A stretch of 64,000 nt of DNA from Limnothrix sp. BL-A-16 (GCA_041937175.2 CP166615.1:1376001-1440000), one strand, 5' to 3'; shown: positions 31,201 through 38,052, counted from the first letter of the stretch. Numbers and translations are program-made. Notes: a model not told the origin generated them from the letters alone.

Positions 31201-33032
31201 TGATAGCGACCAACCAACAAAACCTGGAACAAGCCCGCGCCTATTTTGAACAGTCCCTGGCGATCGCCCAGCAACATCGGGATTTGAGTAATCAAGCCCG
31301 CGCCCTCACCCAAATTGGCCTGCTGGATTACCAAGCCACGCGCTACGAGGCGGCCGTGAGGGCACATCAGGCCAGCTTGGCCCTGGCAGAGCAGGCGAAC
31401 GACCAACCGGCGATCGCCCGCACCCTCGATAATTTGGGTTTGGCCTACTATGCCCAAGGAGACTACGGGGCCGCGGCCACGGTTCAACAAAAGTCCCTGG
31501 CCCTGTCGCAGGCCTTGGGCGATCGCCATGGTACGGCGCGGGCCCTGTCCAACTTGGGAGATACGTACTATCGACTCCAAGACTTTGACGCGGCCACGGA
31601 TTATCTGCAGCGGGCGATCGCCTCTTGGGAACAGGTGCGCGAAAACCTGACCAGTGATGGGGCCCGGCTGGCGATTTTTGAGACCCAAGAAACCACCTAC
31701 AGCACCTTGCAAACGGTGTTAATTGCGGCCCAAAAACCAGAACAGGCCCTGCTGGCCAATGAACGGGGCCGGGCCCAAGCCCTCTTGAAACTGTTGGCGG
31801 AAGAGAGTCAATGGGCCGATCGACCCGCCGCGCGATCGACCCCAACCCCTAACCCATCGGAATTGACGGACTCGATCGACTTAGCACAAATCCAGCGGGT
31901 GGCCCGCGAGCAGTCCGCCACCCTGATTTCCTACGCGATCGAGCGGGATACCCGAGACCACGGAGGCCAACGCCAACTCCTCGACTTGGCTATCAATATT
32001 TGGGTGGTGCAACCTTCGGGACAGGTGCATTTTCGCCAAGTACCCTTGCCCAACAGCCAAACCTTGCGCGATCAAATCCCGTTGCTGCGGTTGTTTTTGG
32101 GAACACGCACCGCCAGCCGATCGGCCCAGTCCACGGTGAACGGCAACCGGCGATCGATCACCCCCGGTTTGCGCCAGCTCCATCGCCTGTTGATTGAGCC
32201 GATCGCCGAATGGTTACCCACCCAACCGGGCGATCGACTGATTGTGATGCCCCAGCAGGATTTGTTCCTGGTGCCCTTTTCCGCCCTGCAAGATGACCAA
32301 GGCCGATACCTGATCGAGCGCCATAGTTTGGCCATGGCTCCTTCGATTCAAGTGCTCGATCGCACCCAACACCAGGCCCAGCGCCTGCGCCAGGAAGGAA
32401 CAGCCCTGACCGATCGCCCCTTGATCGTGGGTAATCCAACCATGCCGCGCTTGCCCAGCAGCCGATCCAATACCCGATCGCAATTGGCCCCGCTGCCCAA
32501 TGCGGAAATCGAAGCCCAATCGATCGCCCGCATGTTGAATGCTCGCCCCCTGTTGGGATCCCAAGCCACCAAAACCGCCGTCTTGGGGCAAATGGAGCAA
32601 GCCAGCCTGATCCACTTGGCCACTCACGGGATTTTGGATGCGAAACATGGCCTAGACAGCGCGATCGCCCTGGCCCCCGGCAACAGCCCGGGGGATGACG
32701 GTTGGTTAACCGCCCGAGAACTGCTGAACCTGGACTTAAAGGCGCAATTAGTCGTCCTCAGCGCCTGCAACACCGGCCAAGGGGCAATTTCCGGCGATGG
32801 AATTGTGGGCTTATCCCGATCGCTCCTGGCGGCCGGAACCCCCAGCGCGATCGTCACCCAATGGGCCGTACCCGACGCACCCACCGCCTTCCTGATGACC
32901 CAGTTCTATCAATTCCTGGGGCAAGGGATGGATAAGGCGGCGGCCTTGCGCCAAGCAACCCTGAGAACTATTCAGGAATATCCCGACCCGATCGACTGGG
33001 CCGCCTTCACCCTCATCGGCGACACCCGCTAG
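28284..33032 (+). CDS. Filamentous-haemagglutinin (TPS) N-terminal domain / low-complexity linker / TPR / CHAT protease
   Basis: Signal AWAQ; NLFHSF..F, NILGRVVGG..S.IDG, NLFLMNPAG; TPRs; LIHLATHG, VLSACNTG, WAAFTLIG. Confidence 0.9.
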   Translation: MHVLRNLGGCSFVGAGVGGCLIIAGIAGFLTIGSLGADSGAAWAQSIAPAADGTGTVVTPQGDRLDISGGSRSSDGANLFHSFERFNLNTQEIANFLATPDLRNILGRVVGGDPSRIDGLIQVSGGSPNLFLMNPAGLVFGPNARLNVPASFTATTATGVSFGESGEFWFQATGSNQYANLLGDPTGLAFALSQPAGIVNRAALAVPTGQSLSLVGGTVLSVGTLSAPGGRLMVAAVPGDRFVRFTPEGSVLALDLPIGGRPGADLTWGPIAPRTIPELLAGQPVTANALTVRPDGTVSIGHSEGPLAAGDVAVQSATAGTATLSAANNLLLLSSQLSTTGDLHLLAGQAAIGRDNPTNPLRLSAGGQLTLWGDRQVDLYGLHHPDSGIISDHSLFLVSSGAIAGNLPLRTGGQLFVTQPTGDRVLFRTVFEPIFSDRSGQITLAFGTTPARSNRAPFISSPVVATTTTRPTTPSPSSTSSSSSTGSTTLRPVVPLNPTGTGTTGTGTTGTINPGSITLIPGTTNDPPTTNPTLSNSVSLIPVAPMQTGSNSSTTNTTVSGLNTSFSLIPIAPVDSPTTNSTSSEDEDDRSAFLPVKPIVVNNNSNTGNTGSSFTVATVNLSLDSANFGGLVTPTNQGIHFSTGKSPISAPWAANVDGLVQSTLANTTEQPVSAGGSSPVAGTVNAGNTNLVGNNLSTAISSDAIVQRANLASATFAANPGSVNGVAGNVAPVTGAVPTSANVSIAPSSGQSPNAAPLVPLSGVTDAANNSTVGTLVTGLPVSSNPLPNSGAIGEGGSNLAHSAGVGNNQAISQTDLLGPRSPGLEGTNPSGIPANGPVTDPGQVLNLQALRAETLQVALCDNTVWLDCQRKDLERARNSGDRKAIVVALQRLGRAHYQAGEYGDAILAHRESRDLAADQPLLAAIAESDLGSSYGALGQYSEAIAHYGQALALLRSNPAPTLESNILNNLGLIATNQQNLEQARAYFEQSLAIAQQHRDLSNQARALTQIGLLDYQATRYEAAVRAHQASLALAEQANDQPAIARTLDNLGLAYYAQGDYGAAATVQQKSLALSQALGDRHGTARALSNLGDTYYRLQDFDAATDYLQRAIASWEQVRENLTSDGARLAIFETQETTYSTLQTVLIAAQKPEQALLANERGRAQALLKLLAEESQWADRPAARSTPTPNPSELTDSIDLAQIQRVAREQSATLISYAIERDTRDHGGQRQLLDLAINIWVVQPSGQVHFRQVPLPNSQTLRDQIPLLRLFLGTRTASRSAQSTVNGNRRSITPGLRQLHRLLIEPIAEWLPTQPGDRLIVMPQQDLFLVPFSALQDDQGRYLIERHSLAMAPSIQVLDRTQHQAQRLRQEGTALTDRPLIVGNPTMPRLPSSRSNTRSQLAPLPNAEIEAQSIARMLNARPLLGSQATKTAVLGQMEQASLIHLATHGILDAKHGLDSAIALAPGNSPGDDGWLTARELLNLDLKAQLVVLSACNTGQGAISGDGIVGLSRSLLAAGTPSAIVTQWAVPDAPTAFLMTQFYQFLGQGMDKAAALRQATLRTIQEYPDPIDWAAFTLIGDTR

Positions 33033-33111
33033 TTCTCTCCAATAGACTCCTGCCCAAAAGGTGAGCGTTGATGAATTCCAATCTCACCAGCGCCGCAAGT
33101 TGGGGAAACGA

Positions 33112-33120
33112 TGCTATACT
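33112..33120 (+). promoter_or_regulatory. Extended -10 promoter element for the riboswitch-led transcript
   Basis: TG-C-TATACT 7-8 nt upstream of the riboswitch 5' end. Confidence 0.55.
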
Positions 33121-33127
33121 TCACCGA

Positions 33128-33241
33128 GTCGGTTCTAGCGGGGAGCAGCCGCTAGAGGTAACGGGGAAAGTTCGGTGTGAATCCGGCACTGTCCCGCAGC
33201 TGTGAAGGAGAAGTGTTTCTCCGAGTCAGAATGCCCGCCGA
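33128..33241 (+). ncRNA. Cobalamin (B12) riboswitch
   Basis: GGTTCTAGCGG..CCGCTAGAGGTAACGGGGAAAGTTCGGTGTGAATCCGGCACTGTCCCGCAGCTGTG...GAGTCAGAATGCCCGCCGA matches the B12-element core; upstream of metE. Confidence 0.93.
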
Positions 33242-33279
33242 TTCAATCCTACAAAGCCCTAAACATCTGCGAGGTACAG

Positions 33280-33393
33280 ATGAACTTACAGCATTTTGCT
33301 GACGACCGCCAAAGGCTTGGGTCGTCAAACTTTTACAGTGCAACGCTTCAGCTCAGCACCTTAGCCGTGCCTCCCTGTTCGACTAATTCCTAA
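33280..33393 (+). CDS. Putative 37-aa leader ORF directly under riboswitch control
   Basis: The hairpin CATCTG-CGAGGTA-CAGATG contains the GAGG SD and the ATG; translation is not proven. Confidence 0.35.
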   Translation: MNLQHFADDRQRLGSSNFYSATLQLSTLAVPPCSTNS

Positions 33394-33772
33394 GTCCAGG
33401 CGGGCGCAGACCCCAATTCCCTCCAAGAGCTGACCGCTAGGGCCATCCGGTTTCTACCCAATGGCAAGGGCCAATCACGATGACCGGAGACTGATGATCA
33501 GGCCTCCCGATCGCTGATTGCATTCTGGACTTCCTCTAGATTGTGAGAAACCCGATCGCCCGATCAAAGTCAGCGGGACTTGGTGTTAGCGAGACTAAGA
33601 AGGCTGACAAACTTAACCTTCGTCGCTCTCACCAGTGACAAACTCCAGCACAGGGGCACAACCGCAAACCTTGTGGATTCAGCCCCCCAGCGAGACTCGG
33701 GCACCCTCAAATTAATGCCCATACTCGCTGCATTTTGGCTGGATTAGGTCTGTCTGTCGCCTGGGACTTGGG
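33389..33772 (+). ncRNA. Large multibranch structured RNA in the metE leader (unassigned)
   Basis: Long closing helix 33389-33428 / 33733-33772 plus at least five internal helices found by manual pairing. Confidence 0.45.
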
Positions 33773-33904
33773 TTCAACATTCATCCCTTGACATCGCGCG
33801 GCCTTGCCTAGCCGATCGGTGGGTGTTCTGTTCGATCAAGCACCCCTCAACTGCGCTGTCATCATCACTCAAAATTTCGCAAAATTTCAGGAGCCTCGAT
33901 TCCC

Positions 33905-36154
33905 ATGGTTATTCAAACCGCCACCTTGGGCTATGCCCGCATGGGCAAAAATCGTGAAGTCAAAAAGGCCCTAGAGTCTTTTTGGCATGGCAAGTGTGAG
34001 ATCAACGCATTGCGATCGACCGTAGAAGCTGTGGAAACCCATGCTTGGACAGTTCAGTTAAAAGCTGGGGTCGATCGAATTGCCGTCGGAGACCAAACTC
34101 TTTACGACCACGTTCTAGATTGGTCAGTGCGTCTGGGGCTAATTCCCGCTCGGTTTCGGCAGTTCACAGGCATTGATCAGTACTTTGCGATGGCCAGGGG
34201 CAAAGACGGGATTCCTGCACTCGAAATGACGAAATGGTTTGATACCAACTATCACTATCTCGTGCCCGAAATTGAGTCTGATCTTGTTCCCACGGCCAAT
34301 TTCGATGATTTCCTAGCAACGGTCAAGCGAGCACAGCTCATTCTCAGCGATCGGGCAACTCCCGTGATCCTCAGTCCGATTACGCTGCTCACCCTCAGTC
34401 GGCGCTCCAACGATCTCTACTCGGATTTAGATCGGTTGCTGCCTCTTTACCTTGACCTACTGGGGCAGTTGAAATCCCTGGGAATCACCGAGGTGCAATT
34501 CCATGAGCCAACCTTAGTAACCAGTCATGCCGGTGATTTAGAAACTGCAATTAAACATACCTACCATCAACTAGCAACTGCGGGGTTGCCGATTCAACTG
34601 GTCACCTACTTTGATGATTTGGGGGATGCCTATAACTGGGTGATGCAGCTCCCGGTAGCTGGAGTTAGCCTCGATTTCACACGAAGCAACAATCTATCTT
34701 TAGTGAAAACCCATGGCTTTCCTCACGACAAAGTGCTTGGGGCCGGTGTTGTGGACGGGCGGAGCGTTTGGGCCATTGAACCCAAGGGTCTGTTGGAACT
34801 GCTTCAGGAATTGCAGGCAATCACACCAAATTTGCGTGTTCAGCCCTCCGCGTCACTCCAGTTTGTTCCCCATGATGCAACCTGCGAAGCTCAACTCCCG
34901 CAACCTTTGCGCGATGTCCTCAGTTTTGCGGAGCAAAAGTTAACGGAAGTGGTGTTGCTGGCAAGCGGCCTCAACGGACAAGACACGACCAACGAGCAAG
35001 CTGCGATCGAGTTGCGTTGGCAGGCATTCAAGCATTTCAACTTACCTAACCCGGCAGTGCGCGATGTGTTACAAACCCTCAAGGTAGAGGATTTTCAGCG
35101 CTCCCTTCCCTATGAACAACGGCTGAATCAGCAACCCAAACTTCCCCCCCTGCCCACCACCACGATCGGTTCTTTTCCGCAAACCCAAGACATTCGACAA
35201 CTGCGGCTCCGATACAAAAAAGGGGAAATTTCCCAAGCGGACTATCACCAGGCGATCGATACCAAAATTGCAGAGTGCATCAAACTCCAAGAGGACGTTG
35301 GGCTAGATGTGCTAGTGCACGGTGAGTTTGAGCGAACTGACATGGTGGAGTATTTTGGACAGCAACTCCAGGGCTTTGCCTTCACAACGGATGGATGGGT
35401 GCAGAGTTATGGCAGTCGTTGCGTTCGCCCACCCATCATTTATGGTGATGTGTCCCGACTGCAACCCATGACCGTTCGGGAGTTTCAAGTTGCACAATCA
35501 TTGACAGATAAACCGGTGAAGGGAATGCTCACGGGCCCGGTCACCATGATCAATTGGTCATTCCCTCGGGCTGACCTCCCGCGCCGTGAACAGGCCATGC
35601 AGATTGCGCTGGCTTTACGAGATGAGGTTGCCGATTTGGAAGCCGCTGGCGCTGTCATGGTGCAAGTGGATGAACCGGCCCTCCGGGAAGGATTGCCCTT
35701 GAAATCTGCTCGGTGGAATGAGTACCTCAGTTGGGCTGTGGATTCGTTCCGATTAGCCACCGGTGGCGCGAAGACTGAAACCCAAATTCACACGCACATG
35801 TGCTATTCCGAGTTTGGAGACATTATTGAGCACATTGAACGCCTTGATGCGGATGTTCTATCCATTGAAAATAGCCGCAGCAACAACGCAACGCTCTTTG
35901 AAATCACGGATGCTGGATATCAGTATCAAGTTGGGAACGGGGTCTATGATGTCCACAGCCCAAGCGTTCCCAGTGTGGAACAAATTCTTCAGCAGTTGCG
36001 CACGGGTGCTGATCGTTTGCCTGTTCAGCAAACCTGGATTAATCCTGACTGCGGGCTAAAAACTCGCCAGTGGGAAGAAGTGCTTCCTGCGCTCAAAAAT
36101 ATGGTGCTCGCCACGCAAAAGCTACGGGAAGAAATTCATGATTCATCCCACTAG
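33905..36154 (+). CDS. metE: Cobalamin-independent methionine synthase
   Basis: EMTKWFDTNYHY, PTTTIGSFPQT, VHGEFER.DMVEYFG, HTHMCYSEF, WINPDCGLKTR; AGGAG RBS. Confidence 0.97.
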   Translation: MVIQTATLGYARMGKNREVKKALESFWHGKCEINALRSTVEAVETHAWTVQLKAGVDRIAVGDQTLYDHVLDWSVRLGLIPARFRQFTGIDQYFAMARGKDGIPALEMTKWFDTNYHYLVPEIESDLVPTANFDDFLATVKRAQLILSDRATPVILSPITLLTLSRRSNDLYSDLDRLLPLYLDLLGQLKSLGITEVQFHEPTLVTSHAGDLETAIKHTYHQLATAGLPIQLVTYFDDLGDAYNWVMQLPVAGVSLDFTRSNNLSLVKTHGFPHDKVLGAGVVDGRSVWAIEPKGLLELLQELQAITPNLRVQPSASLQFVPHDATCEAQLPQPLRDVLSFAEQKLTEVVLLASGLNGQDTTNEQAAIELRWQAFKHFNLPNPAVRDVLQTLKVEDFQRSLPYEQRLNQQPKLPPLPTTTIGSFPQTQDIRQLRLRYKKGEISQADYHQAIDTKIAECIKLQEDVGLDVLVHGEFERTDMVEYFGQQLQGFAFTTDGWVQSYGSRCVRPPIIYGDVSRLQPMTVREFQVAQSLTDKPVKGMLTGPVTMINWSFPRADLPRREQAMQIALALRDEVADLEAAGAVMVQVDEPALREGLPLKSARWNEYLSWAVDSFRLATGGAKTETQIHTHMCYSEFGDIIEHIERLDADVLSIENSRSNNATLFEITDAGYQYQVGNGVYDVHSPSVPSVEQILQQLRTGADRLPVQQTWINPDCGLKTRQWEEVLPALKNMVLATQKLREEIHDSSH

Positions 36155-36572
36155 CCCAAGGTTGTCAAACCTGACTGTTGGCTTACCCAACGTTATTCAG
36201 GATAACTTCCTGTACATCGGCTATGTTGCATGGCAAGGCCACCTCCAATATGGACGAGGGATGGTGGCTTGTACAGTGCAAGAAACGGTGACTAATCGCT
36301 TGGGTGGGATTGAGGATGTAACAGCAAGGTCTGTGCAATATATTCCGTTCGACCTTGCTGCTTTATACCTTGACCTTTGCCTTGTGCCTGTTAGTTCAAT
36401 CGATCGCCTGTTGAGCGTGATCAAAACCTATGCACCCGATCGAGAGATTTTGATTTTGGTCAAGCAAGGTCAAGATGTGGAGATTGACTGGCTGCAAAAC
36501 CTAGCAATTTCACCTTCTGAGTGTTATCGCCAAGTGTGCGATCGCTGGTCAGAGTTTAATCTGGCTTCTTAA
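36138..36572 (+). CDS. Hypothetical protein, paralog of 38886-39353
   Basis: Overlaps the metE stop by 17 nt; shares GY.AW...L..GRG.V.C and ISP...Y..VC....EF.L with the downstream paralog. Confidence 0.75.
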   Translation: MIHPTSPRLSNLTVGLPNVIQDNFLYIGYVAWQGHLQYGRGMVACTVQETVTNRLGGIEDVTARSVQYIPFDLAALYLDLCLVPVSSIDRLLSVIKTYAPDREILILVKQGQDVEIDWLQNLAISPSECYRQVCDRWSEFNLAS

Positions 36573-36672
36573 CTCAACAGAGGCTGGATTAACACCAAGG
36601 ATTGCAGTGTTGATGATTGCTTCGGCGGATCAGCTCGATGCATGAGCTAGTTCATTGTGTTCTCTTTCATTT

Positions 36673-38052
36673 ATGAATAAGCAGTCGATTTTGGCATTGG
36701 CAGACCATCCCACTGTGGCAGTGACAGGGCGAGTGGATCAGTGGCTCCATGATCCTGCGGGGCGGCTGCCGGTGAGCTGTACGGTTCTGGCTGTGCAGGA
36801 TCGAATGGATGGCCCGGATGGCATTGAAGATAGTTGGCATTTCACGAGCCAGGCCCTCCGCTATGGGGCTGGTGTTGCGATCAACTTGTCAGCGCTTCGG
36901 CCTGCGGGTACGGTTTCGCCGAATGTCACAGCCTCTGGCCCCACATCTTTTGCCCGCATTTACAGCGTCTTGAATGAGACGATCCGCCGGGGCGGTCGAT
37001 TTAAAAACGGGGCGGTCAATTTGCATTTGGATAGTCATCACCCTGATGCTCAGGACTTTATTAAGATTCCAATCGATCGCTTGCCTTGGGCTAAACGCAC
37101 GCTAATTGTTCATGATGATTTGCTGCAATTGCCATACCTGAATGACATCATGGAGCAAATGCAATCCGGCAGTTTGTGGCTCTCCAAAGCTCGGACGGAT
37201 GCTGCGGGAAATGTGCTGTATGGCAATGTTTGCAATGAAATTTTTTTGCCGTCACGGGGAACCTGTTTGCTGCAACATGTCAACTTGGGAATGTGTTGCA
37301 TTGAGGATATTCCTGATGCTTTCGAGCATGGCATGAAGATGCTCTGTTCAATTCATCCCATCACTGGTGTGGGTGAGAGTAGCCTTTATCGATCGCCCGA
37401 ACATGATCGACAGGTGGGGTTGGGGGTCATTGGCTTGGCATCGCTTTTGGCGATCGAAAGCGTTACCTATCGCGAGTTGGTGGAAGCTTGGGAATTGCGC
37501 CTGCGGCCGATCGACCACGCAAGAAGTCAAACCAAGGCCGATCGATTAGTGAACAGCCTAATTGAAGGGTTCGATCGCGCGGCGGCTTGGGCCCGAAAAG
37601 AGGGAATGGAGCGCAGTCTAACGATCGCGCCAACGGCTTCCTGTGCTTATCGCTATGTTGATCGCGATGGCTACACAACAACACCGGAAATTAGCCCCCC
37701 GATCGCCTGTGAAGTCGATCGCTACAGTGGTGTTTTTGGGATCCAAACCTATGATCATCATCCCCGAGTAGAAACTGCTTCAGAAGTGGGATATGAGGAC
37801 TATTTCCGGCTGGCCAATTGTTGGCAGCAAAGCATGGAAGCGACGGGACAGGCTCACTCGATATCCTTCAACATTTGGGATACCCAGGTGATTGATCAAG
37901 ATTTCCTAGAAAAATGGATGCGATCGGCACTTTGGACAACCTACTATCGATTGCCAGTCCGTCAACAATCCGCCCTTGATAAAACCATCATTCAACAGAA
38001 ATCGTTAACTTGCGATCTGTCGGCTGATGAATGTGTTGCTTGTGCTGAATAG
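36673..38052 (+). CDS. Minimal ribonucleotide reductase catalytic (alpha, NrdA-like) subunit, cyanophage-like / class Ø type
   Basis: About 460 aa; GRLPVSCT, finger loop GNVCNE (NxCxE), TCLLQHVNLG, QVGLGVIGLA, IAPTASC, TTYYR dyad, C-terminal CVACAE; no ATP-cone. Confidence 0.88.
   Translation: MNKQSILALADHPTVAVTGRVDQWLHDPAGRLPVSCTVLAVQDRMDGPDGIEDSWHFTSQALRYGAGVAINLSALRPAGTVSPNVTASGPTSFARIYSVLNETIRRGGRFKNGAVNLHLDSHHPDAQDFIKIPIDRLPWAKRTLIVHDDLLQLPYLNDIMEQMQSGSLWLSKARTDAAGNVLYGNVCNEIFLPSRGTCLLQHVNLGMCCIEDIPDAFEHGMKMLCSIHPITGVGESSLYRSPEHDRQVGLGVIGLASLLAIESVTYRELVEAWELRLRPIDHARSQTKADRLVNSLIEGFDRAAAWARKEGMERSLTIAPTASCAYRYVDRDGYTTTPEISPPIACEVDRYSGVFGIQTYDHHPRVETASEVGYEDYFRLANCWQQSMEATGQAHSISFNIWDTQVIDQDFLEKWMRSALWTTYYRLPVRQQSALDKTIIQQKSLTCDLSADECVACAE

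Follow-up and report, generated by a model that had tools for sequence, protein, structure and literature searches.

Why does the leader of a methionine synthase gene carry several hundred nucleotides (nt) beyond its riboswitch, and what keeps them there? The question is raised by a stretch of 64,000 nt from the cyanobacterium Limnothrix sp. BL-A-16 (GCA_041937175.2 CP166615.1:1376001-1440000; hereafter the window, with positions counted from its first letter), in which a cobalamin (vitamin B12) riboswitch precedes metE, and a 384-nt segment at 33389-33772, called here the element, lies between the two. The original prediction, made from the sequence alone, had described this segment as an unassigned multibranch RNA structure, and its sequence and coordinates are borne out. 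The comparison with a congener presented below, which is a single genome pair, shows that the base pairing of the element, not its sequence, is maintained by selection, and on that evidence it is a structured functional RNA; the element is restricted to one genus, single-copy and without known RNA family. As to its role, we give about even chances to the reading that it is a lineage-specific, self-closing and fold-constrained spacer domain, by which the expression platform of the riboswitch is "expanded", within a leader made of the riboswitch, an upstream open reading frame (uORF) and metE, and that it acts in cis on the plus strand as a structural spacer or insulator and not as a second ligand sensor.

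The fold of the element

RNAfold gives the plus strand of 33389-33772 a free energy of -159.6 kcal/mol, against a mean of -121.7 (standard deviation 5.4) for 100 dinucleotide shuffles, none of which folds as low. By this check, which had been proposed with the original prediction, the element folds better than its shuffled counterparts (z = -7.04), and the minus strand of the same segment scores z = -4.49. Twelve helices had been listed by manual pairing. All 12 complementary segment pairs are found where they had been placed, 11 of them fully canonical and the remaining one (TGATCAGGC/GCCCGATCA) canonical at 8 of 9 positions, but only seven dominate the predicted ensemble. In the partition function, the pairing probability P is 0.86 for CCTAAGTCC/GGACTTGGG, 0.93 for CAGGCG/CGCCTG, 0.99 for CAGACC/GGTCTG and 1.00 for GCTGAC/GTCAGC, while CAGCGAG/CTCGCTG (1.00) and GGGCA/TGCCC (0.96) both belong to the hairpin 33688-33730; AGCGA/TCGCT also reaches 1.00, but it is formed as 33689/33725 and not in the hairpin at 33581-33634 to which it had been assigned. 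The other five lose to alternatives, notably to a 14-base-pair (bp) helix, 33440-33455/33546-33561: these are CCAAGA/TTTTGG (0.02), TCCGGT/ACCGGA (0.00), TGATCAGGC/GCCCGATCA (0.00), TGGTG/CACCA (0.14) and CACAGGG/CCTTGTG (0.01).

The resulting architecture is that of a large fold closed on itself. The 5' arm of its closing helix pairs over 15 bp with 33757-33772 (mean P 0.89) and over a further 7 bp with 33747-33753 (P 0.96), and encloses Domain I, two small hairpins and Domain III (Table 1). Inside the 14-bp helix of Domain I a three-way junction is predicted. The motif TGACAAACT, said to occur twice, is present in two copies, at 33605 and 33636, and GACAAACU stands twice in predicted single strands between Domains I and III, at 33606 and 33637. 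The absence of any recognisable family also holds: at gathering thresholds Rfam 15 matches only the upstream RF00174 in the whole 64-kb window, and at E<=10 nothing credible appears inside the element, where the sole match is an archaeal small nucleolar RNA model at 14.7 bits for a gathering score of 60.

How unusual is such a fold for this genome? As a control, z was computed for the central 384 nt in each of 36 stretches of this genome without open reading frames (ORFs), which gave a mean of -2.3 (standard deviation 2.6) and five values at -5.4 or lower. Among the five strongest-folding controls, a dispersed palindromic repeat is present in three and a tRNA in a fourth; the element contains neither. 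The palindrome in question, GGGGCTTAAGCCCC, is dispersed through the genome in 342 copies, mostly as ACAAGGGGCTTAAGCCCCTTGT, together with a related palindrome, GACGACAGGCCCTAGGGCCTGTCGTC. In places these palindromes form tandem units of about 145 nt (for example in loci L106, 293-604; L107, 230-724; L110, 371-502); the most extreme intergenic control z-scores are due to them, and Rfam gives no match for them. An origin of the element from this family (ACAAGGGGCTTAAGCCCCTTGT, GACGACAGGCCCTAGGGCCTGTCGTC) was considered and rejected, the likeness being limited to CCTAAG[T/C]CC, which the genome seldom has in the form seen in the element.

Pairing is kept while the sequence drifts

The test for selection compares the element with its counterpart in one congener, whose flanking genes are 91-94% identical. 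The 872-nt intergenic region aligns end to end with the congener with two indels, while three nearby intergenic regions give no alignment to it at all. Within the element, 55 substitutions in 384 aligned positions (14.3%) are accompanied by a 13-nt and a 1-nt indel, for an identity of 83-84%, while four-fold degenerate sites diverge by 16.1% in metE and by 14.0% in the upstream gene: the element diverges at about the neutral rate, and its primary sequence is therefore not constrained.

The distribution of these substitutions over the fold is another matter. When the same types of substitution were placed at random positions in 400 simulated runs, and scored on the minimum free energy (MFE) structure of the window, 21.9 +/- 2.6 of its 125 pairs were broken on average and never fewer than 14, whereas the substitutions of the congener break only 12 (0/400 at 12 or below). 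The structure of the window imposed on the congener's letters has an energy of -124.7 kcal/mol, against -90.7 +/- 8.9 in the simulations (0/400), and folded freely the congener reaches an MFE of -145.6, where simulation gives -125.3 +/- 7.1 (0/150). Paired positions have diverged by 11.6% and unpaired ones by 19.4%. The covariation that the original prediction had asked for is present in part, within the limit of a single genome pair: all three of the both-sided changes in pairs of the window's MFE structure leave the pair formed, and RNAalifold finds 114 consensus pairs with 4 two-sided and 15 one-sided changes. Compensatory changes fall in Domain I (33434:33569, CG>UA; 33475:33517, UA>CG) and in the closing helix (CG>GU, CG>UA in a shifted register, and several exchanges between GC and GU), while the closing 8 bp of Domain III are identical in the congener. 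The 13-nt insertion of the congener follows 33613, in a predicted-unpaired stretch, and the copies of GACAAACU are retained.

Two controls bear on how this result is to be read. Applied to the pairs predicted in the flanks, the simulation finds conservation no better than chance (p=0.54 and 0.55), and therefore does not automatically give significance. On the minus strand, overall foldability is preserved, but preservation of the specific structure is not significant (p=0.09 and 0.16), as fits a plus-strand RNA using G-U pairs.

Distribution, copy number and transcription

Searches with word-7 blastn and nhmmer find the element once in its own genome. Of eight genomes of the family, its own and that of a congener contain it, and the third species of the genus lacks the element as well as metE; among 401 cyanobacterial genomes sampled from the class it is found in these two only, plus two matches of 33-37 nt. 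Exact-pattern scans of metagenome contigs returned no match for a 20-mer of the element and none for a 24-mer of the conserved uORF start, and a search of genome contigs with a MetE query recovered mostly distant bacteria and three cyanobacterial loci (L028, L030, L032), none with the element. Near-identical sequence does exist elsewhere: at least half of the sampled words of 33100-34100 (1001 nt) are found in 13 public DNA runs, which include strain variants. Against the other comparison loci, nhmmer and blastn gave short matches only, in L003 (49 nt, 84%) and L010 (24 nt), and the former was dismissed as chance, lying inside a large ORF to which tblastn shows no in-frame similarity.

Could the element be a decayed gene, which would have undone the original prediction? 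Its longest frames (50-56 aa) have no Pfam match at E<=1, comparison with the genome's own 26,762 open frames gave no match above chance, and no in-frame similarity appeared; with congener indels of 13 and 1 nt added to this, there is no sign of a decayed gene. Transcription, on which the original prediction also hung, is weakly indicated: a 385-nt contig from an RNA library spans 33139-33523 and thus includes the aptamer, the uORF and the first 135 nt of the element, although the rest of the element is not covered by it. The contig is weak evidence that aptamer, uORF and element share a transcript. Neither strand of 32900-34000 contains promoter-like or terminator-like sites. The contigs of RNA runs X16 and X17 leave the interior of the element uncovered, an absence that, in contigs, carries no weight. 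Separately, an RNA contig of run X16 follows the window up to 33311 and continues with the uORF hairpin loop as it reads in the congener; a congener-like strain was therefore present in that freshwater sample.

Organization of the leader

The features of the locus are collected in Table 1. The RF00174 match (Rfam 15) covers model positions 1-189, the B12 box included, and the aptamer is 97.9% identical to that of the congener (divergence 2.1%). Upstream of it stands the gene of a 1600-aa TPS/TPR/CHAT protein, which ends at 33032. The genome also encodes MetH, so that a B12-repressed metE is sensible, and it holds two further cobalamin riboswitches. The leader measures 648 nt from aptamer to metE; minus the 384 nt of the element, the distance from hairpin to metE would be 254 nt, as compared with 245-265 nt in four other leaders. 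Beyond metE, the congener (L025, G002) has about 2.6 kb of extra DNA at 36563-36655, between metE and a ribonucleotide reductase-like ORF. This ORF of 465 aa (36655-38052) matches the ribonucleotide reductase barrel domain at the profile start only (1-97 of 523, in two stretches), and may be a split, intein-bearing or truncated gene.

Table 1. Features of the metE leader and of its neighbourhood in the window.
Feature	Position	Strand	Remarks
Cobalamin riboswitch aptamer (RF00174)	33113..33256	+	61.5 bits; gathering score 31.5
Terminal hairpin of the riboswitch expression platform, CAUCUG-CGAGGUA-CAGAUG	33264..33282	+	GAGG in loop, AUG in 3' strand
uORF, 37 codons (MNLQHFADD...)	33280..33393	+	stop TAA at 33391-33393
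Hairpin within the uORF, GACGACC ... GGUCGUC	33301..33326	+	same stem, different loop in the congener
Closing helix, 5' arm	33389..33412	+	basal part 33389-33403 includes the uORF stop codon; second part 33406-33412
Domain I	33413..33583	+	closed by CCAAUUCCC/GGGACUUGG, then GCUGAC/GUCAGC, then the 14-bp helix
Two small hairpins	33584..33643	+	33584-33609 and 33622-33639
Domain III	33644..33743	+	closed by UCCAGCACA/UGGCUGGA; hairpins 33653-33686 and 33688-33730; P 0.83-1.00
Closing helix, 3' arm	33747..33772	+	from the predicted ensemble
3' part of the leader	33773..33904	+	metE Shine-Dalgarno GGAG at 33890-33893
metE, cobalamin-independent methionine synthase	33905..36154	+	Pfam Meth_synt_1 (1.5e-102), Meth_synt_2 (1.2e-150)

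The hairpin that follows the aptamer, which we take to be the P13/L13 kissing-loop hairpin of the riboswitch family, whose loop would pair with L5, is far more widespread than the element. Its motif, ATCTGCGAGGTACRGATG with at most one mismatch, occurs in 197 of the 401 cyanobacterial genomes, with up to five copies per genome (four hits for the reversed control), BLAST matches from other families all fall at 33262-33282, and RF00174 lies directly upstream of the hairpin in 16 of 20 loci scanned. After a cobalamin aptamer, it behaves as a portable module. The AUG in its 3' strand, with GAGG 5 nt upstream, places a start site inside the expression platform. In 9 of 30 loci (L113-L142) this AUG opens a long ORF of at least 100 aa, the regulated gene itself; the remaining loci have a short frame of 6-65 codons (in four of them the last triplet of the hairpin is not ATG), and the main gene begins 13-640 nt later, some of the frames overlapping its start by a few bases. 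The loop recurs (CUGCGAGG) in one of the two other cobalamin riboswitches of the Limnothrix genome, where a gene starts 9 nt past the hairpin. The hairpin AUG is thus, from sequence, a plausible initiation site for the uORF, because the same ATG starts a long ORF in those nine loci. The uORF keeps its length and stop position in the congener, where 11 of its 37 residues differ; the peptide is therefore not conserved. One of the short-frame loci stands apart: in L122 (G180), the 65-codon frame that begins at the hairpin ATG ends in ...MFMIIQTIPLGY, which is like a MetE N-terminus before the stop; a frameshift or an error of assembly may have fused metE to the uORF frame here.

In metE leaders this arrangement recurs: all ten cyanobacterial ones examined have the hairpin followed by a uORF of 18-42 codons, whose peptide is unconserved. 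The spacer between uORF stop and metE ATG varies from 106 to 525 nt and is longest in this genus, where it also folds best (z of -5.6 in the window and -5.3 in the congener, against -0.75 to -3.1 elsewhere). What the uORF stop pairs with varies as well. It pairs with the metE Shine-Dalgarno/AUG region with P about 1 in L017 and L018, and likewise over about 20 bp by duplex folding in L020; no such pairing is found in L028 and others. In these three loci (genomes G018, G055 and G020) 16-20 bp can form between the uORF end with its UAG (UGUAGCGUUCUGA) and the region where ribosomes would bind for metE (AGGACGCUACA); such complementarity suggests that uORF translation may unmask metE. A UGUAGCGUUCUGA-type motif is present in L022, its partner having diverged, and L028 has the partner and lacks the first motif. 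A design that couples the uORF stop to a long-range helix therefore exists in relatives, and the solutions found by these leaders are lineage-specific. The spacer of L020 (G020) contains three tandem GAAAGCAATCTGA-like units, another lineage-specific expansion at the same leader position.

A proposed spacer domain at the end of the uORF

How might a fold whose pairing is kept, and whose letters are not, serve this leader? The proposed sequence of events begins with the parts recognized by homology, the cobalamin aptamer and the conserved hairpin, which has a Shine-Dalgarno GAGG and an AUG. From sequence, this AUG opens the 37-codon uORF, and the UAA that ends it is reached 2 nt into the 5' arm of the closing helix. 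B12 binding would then hide the uORF start through the kissing-loop hairpin, and without B12 the uORF would be translated, each ribosome that terminates at its stop having to unzip most of the 15-bp basal helix. A terminating ribosome keeps roughly 10-13 nt past the stop-codon neighbourhood single-stranded, hence the estimate that most of the helix would be opened. The compact and nuclease-resistant fold would tuck away about 380 nt of untranslated leader and bring the uORF end near the metE-proximal leader, and the opening and closing of its base by uORF translation might bear on the stability of the metE mRNA, on its cleavage or on access to its start site. The metE Shine-Dalgarno is predicted to lie only in a weak local hairpin, which hints at control through the fate of the mRNA and not through masking. 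Three other pairings were tried in this context and set aside: the pairing of a freed 3' arm with the metE Shine-Dalgarno, which a G>T change in the congener breaks; that of 33284-33322, which resembles the 3' arm, where the bases differ in the congener and form a hairpin loop; and long-range pairs between the 5' and 3' flanks, which are predicted and conserved no better than chance.

Of the three identities offered by the original prediction, the second cis-regulatory element comes closest to this reading, insofar as the element stands in the leader of metE, on the same strand as the gene, has selected pairing and abuts a riboswitch-gated uORF, but it shows no sign of being an independent ligand sensor. 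A bolder version, which we hold to be rather unlikely, would make the closing helix a translation-gated switch of a kind undescribed in bacteria, in which the riboswitch turns B12 status into a uORF that is translated or silent, and the ribosome terminating in the foot of the helix decides the fate of the metE message, either by blocking the cleavage of the 22-bp helix by a double-strand-specific RNase, or by a shunt-like passage to its 3' side.

Several observations weigh against the spacer reading, or against parts of it. Two of the 36 control intergenic stretches have z below -7.04 and so fold more strongly than the element, whose fold is therefore unusual for the genome and not unique by z-score alone. 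The element is present in two genomes only, so that covariation amounts to one comparison; its divergence (14.3%) equals the rate at four-fold sites (14.0-16.1%), and no loop or junction is clearly conserved. In the congener, the MFE structure of the whole leader lacks the closing helix and prefers a local alternative, forcing the helix costs 4.3 kcal/mol, and two basal pairs are broken unless the register shifts. Of 12 listed strain variants within the element, five are unpaired, four keep their pair and three break it. As for the link to metE, the 3' arm does not reach the Shine-Dalgarno, which follows 117 nt downstream, blocking the ribosome-covered stretch or the whole uORF in constrained folding makes the Shine-Dalgarno more accessible in neither genome, and a four-segment scheme of the attenuator type (uORF pyrimidine tract, 5' arm, 3' arm, metE Shine-Dalgarno) was rejected, constrained folding supporting it in neither genome. 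The position of the uORF stop inside the helix could be a coincidence, at roughly 1 in 10 by estimate. Finally, the RNA contig is metatranscriptomic, with DNA carry-over possible and only the first 135 nt of the element covered, and the contigs of another RNA run cover both sides of the element and not the element itself.

Alternative explanations

Could the element be the remnant of an inserted mobile element, similar to a miniature inverted-repeat transposable element (MITE) with long terminal inverted repeats, which landed at a permissive site, has no function, and keeps its pairing because an unfolded insert harms the riboswitch or the mRNA? This is unlikely. In its favour, the two ends of the element are imperfect inverted copies of each other over about 24 nt, its subtraction restores a typical leader length, the uORF-metE spacers of cyanobacteria vary over the range given above with other lineages having expansions of their own (such as the tandem repeats of L020), the sequence diverges at about the neutral rate, and the genome is rich in dispersed palindromic repeats. 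Like a MITE, it is about 400 nt long, with imperfect terminal inverted repeats and an insertion-like position. Unlike one, it is single-copy, the congener too has a single copy, the third species has none and the 401 genomes contain no other; its flanks share only "TT" as a possible target-site duplication; its end motif CCTAAGTCC is rare (4 genome copies vs 17 expected); and its internal helices are conserved too, with a plus-strand bias that depends on G-U pairs. The mobile-RNA remnant of the original prediction thus finds no support in copy number or flanks, and the lack of further copies and of a clear target-site duplication makes an active or recent mobile element unlikely. An ancient insertion is a possible origin, compatible with a present role as a spacer.

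The element might instead be an independent sensor, that is, another riboswitch, or a regulatory RNA that binds a protein or an RNA, by which a second input would reach metE, such as S-adenosylmethionine (SAM) or methionine. Its place between riboswitch and metE, its multi-branch architecture with junctions, and the two single-stranded copies of GACAAACU retained in the congener would suit such a role. Ligand-binding cores are, however, normally the most conserved part of a sensor, and here the unpaired positions diverge by 19.4%, faster than the 14-16% of neutral sites, so that no conserved core is visible; Rfam gives no match even at E<=10 with all SAM classes included, the element is restricted to one genus, and its 384 nt are far larger than known aptamers. 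This explanation is quite improbable, and a second ligand sensor in particular is unlikely.

A similarly low probability is given to a processed ncRNA, a stable trans-acting RNA excised from the leader whose abundance would be set by the B12 riboswitch, on the model of the riboswitch-controlled small RNAs of Listeria and Enterococcus. Nucleases would make little headway against so closed and stable a fold, the long closing helix, of 15 + 7 bp, may resemble an RNase III substrate, and the RNA-library contig ends within the element, at 33523; yet contigs cannot show RNA ends, 32900-34000 has neither a terminator-like nor a promoter-like site on either strand, no conserved single-stranded seed region is evident, and the narrow distribution sits badly with a general trans-acting role. 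A chance or compositional artefact, in the form of G+C-rich intergenic DNA with HIP1-type palindromes that happens to fold well, is very improbable indeed: the genome's intergenic stretches do beat their shuffles on average and five of 36 do so strongly, two CCCGATCGC motifs stand within the element and genome-wide there are 5226 copies of the HIP1 octamer GCGATCGC (about 69 expected), but the two controls that outfold the element both contain the repeat absent from it, the congener's substitutions avoid breaking pairs to an extent seen in none of 400 simulations, and the flanks are null under the same simulation.

Known systems and what the leader may mean

The leader shares its first part with other cobalamin riboswitches, namely a full-length aptamer followed by the GAGG/AUG hairpin. 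It differs in what comes after: where the hairpin AUG is the start of the regulated gene in 9 of 30 other loci, here it opens a 37-codon uORF, and metE begins 511 nt further on, past a 384-nt fold that lies outside the riboswitch models. Two structured RNA elements in series are also known from the metE leader of Bacillus clausii, with its tandem SAM-I and adenosylcobalamin riboswitches; here, in contrast, the second element has neither an aptamer family nor a conserved core. In leader-peptide attenuation, translation of a short ORF remodels the pairing of the downstream mRNA, and the three relatives in which the uORF-stop region is complementary to the metE Shine-Dalgarno (L017, L018 and L020) resemble attenuators and long-range anti-Shine-Dalgarno leaders in this respect. 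The window departs from them in that the partner of its uORF stop is the 3' arm of the domain and not the metE Shine-Dalgarno, the modelled alternative pairings leave access to the latter unchanged, and a terminator is absent. The ribosome shunt of cauliflower mosaic virus, a eukaryotic mechanism, also involves a large stable leader structure before the main ORF, with a short ORF that stops at its foot. This is an analogy only, with 132 nt here between 3' arm and metE, and we know of no bacterial precedent for a shunt mechanism.

A parallel comes from the ppe2 and metE leaders of Mycobacterium tuberculosis, in which the B12 riboswitch is a translational OFF switch for a short translated leader ORF, and translation of this ORF in turn affects expression of the gene that follows (Kipkorir et al. 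2024, PMC11260477). There, PPE2 expression needs uORF translation, mainly through termination-reinitiation, and the uORF of metE is situated inside the aptamer and has a suppressive effect on MetE (PMC11260477). Those leaders share with the present one, which is known from sequence, a B12 riboswitch and a short leader ORF; here, the uORF follows the aptamer and its stop, 511 nt ahead of metE, stands at the foot of a large fold. In the literature searched, an interplay of B12 riboswitch and uORF was found only for M. tuberculosis, no description was found of a uORF in a cyanobacterial B12 riboswitch leader, and a search of one preprint (10.1101/2023.08.23.554402) turned up nothing relevant on riboswitches.

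Why would such a leader matter? To our knowledge, cyanobacteria are without Rho, and the control by a translational riboswitch of a gene hundreds of bases downstream therefore needs explaining; a metE riboswitch of Synechococcus is reported to have been studied experimentally by Perez et al. in 2016. The Limnothrix leader offers a concrete and testable layout, made of an aptamer, a start-site hairpin, a uORF, a large fold with the uORF stop in its foot, and metE, as well as a case of a long leader insert kept by selection on pairing alone. The broader pattern may outweigh the 384-nt domain itself: across cyanobacteria the same riboswitch module is fused either to genes or to short uORFs, and in the metE leaders of three relatives the uORF stop pairs with the ribosome-binding site of metE.

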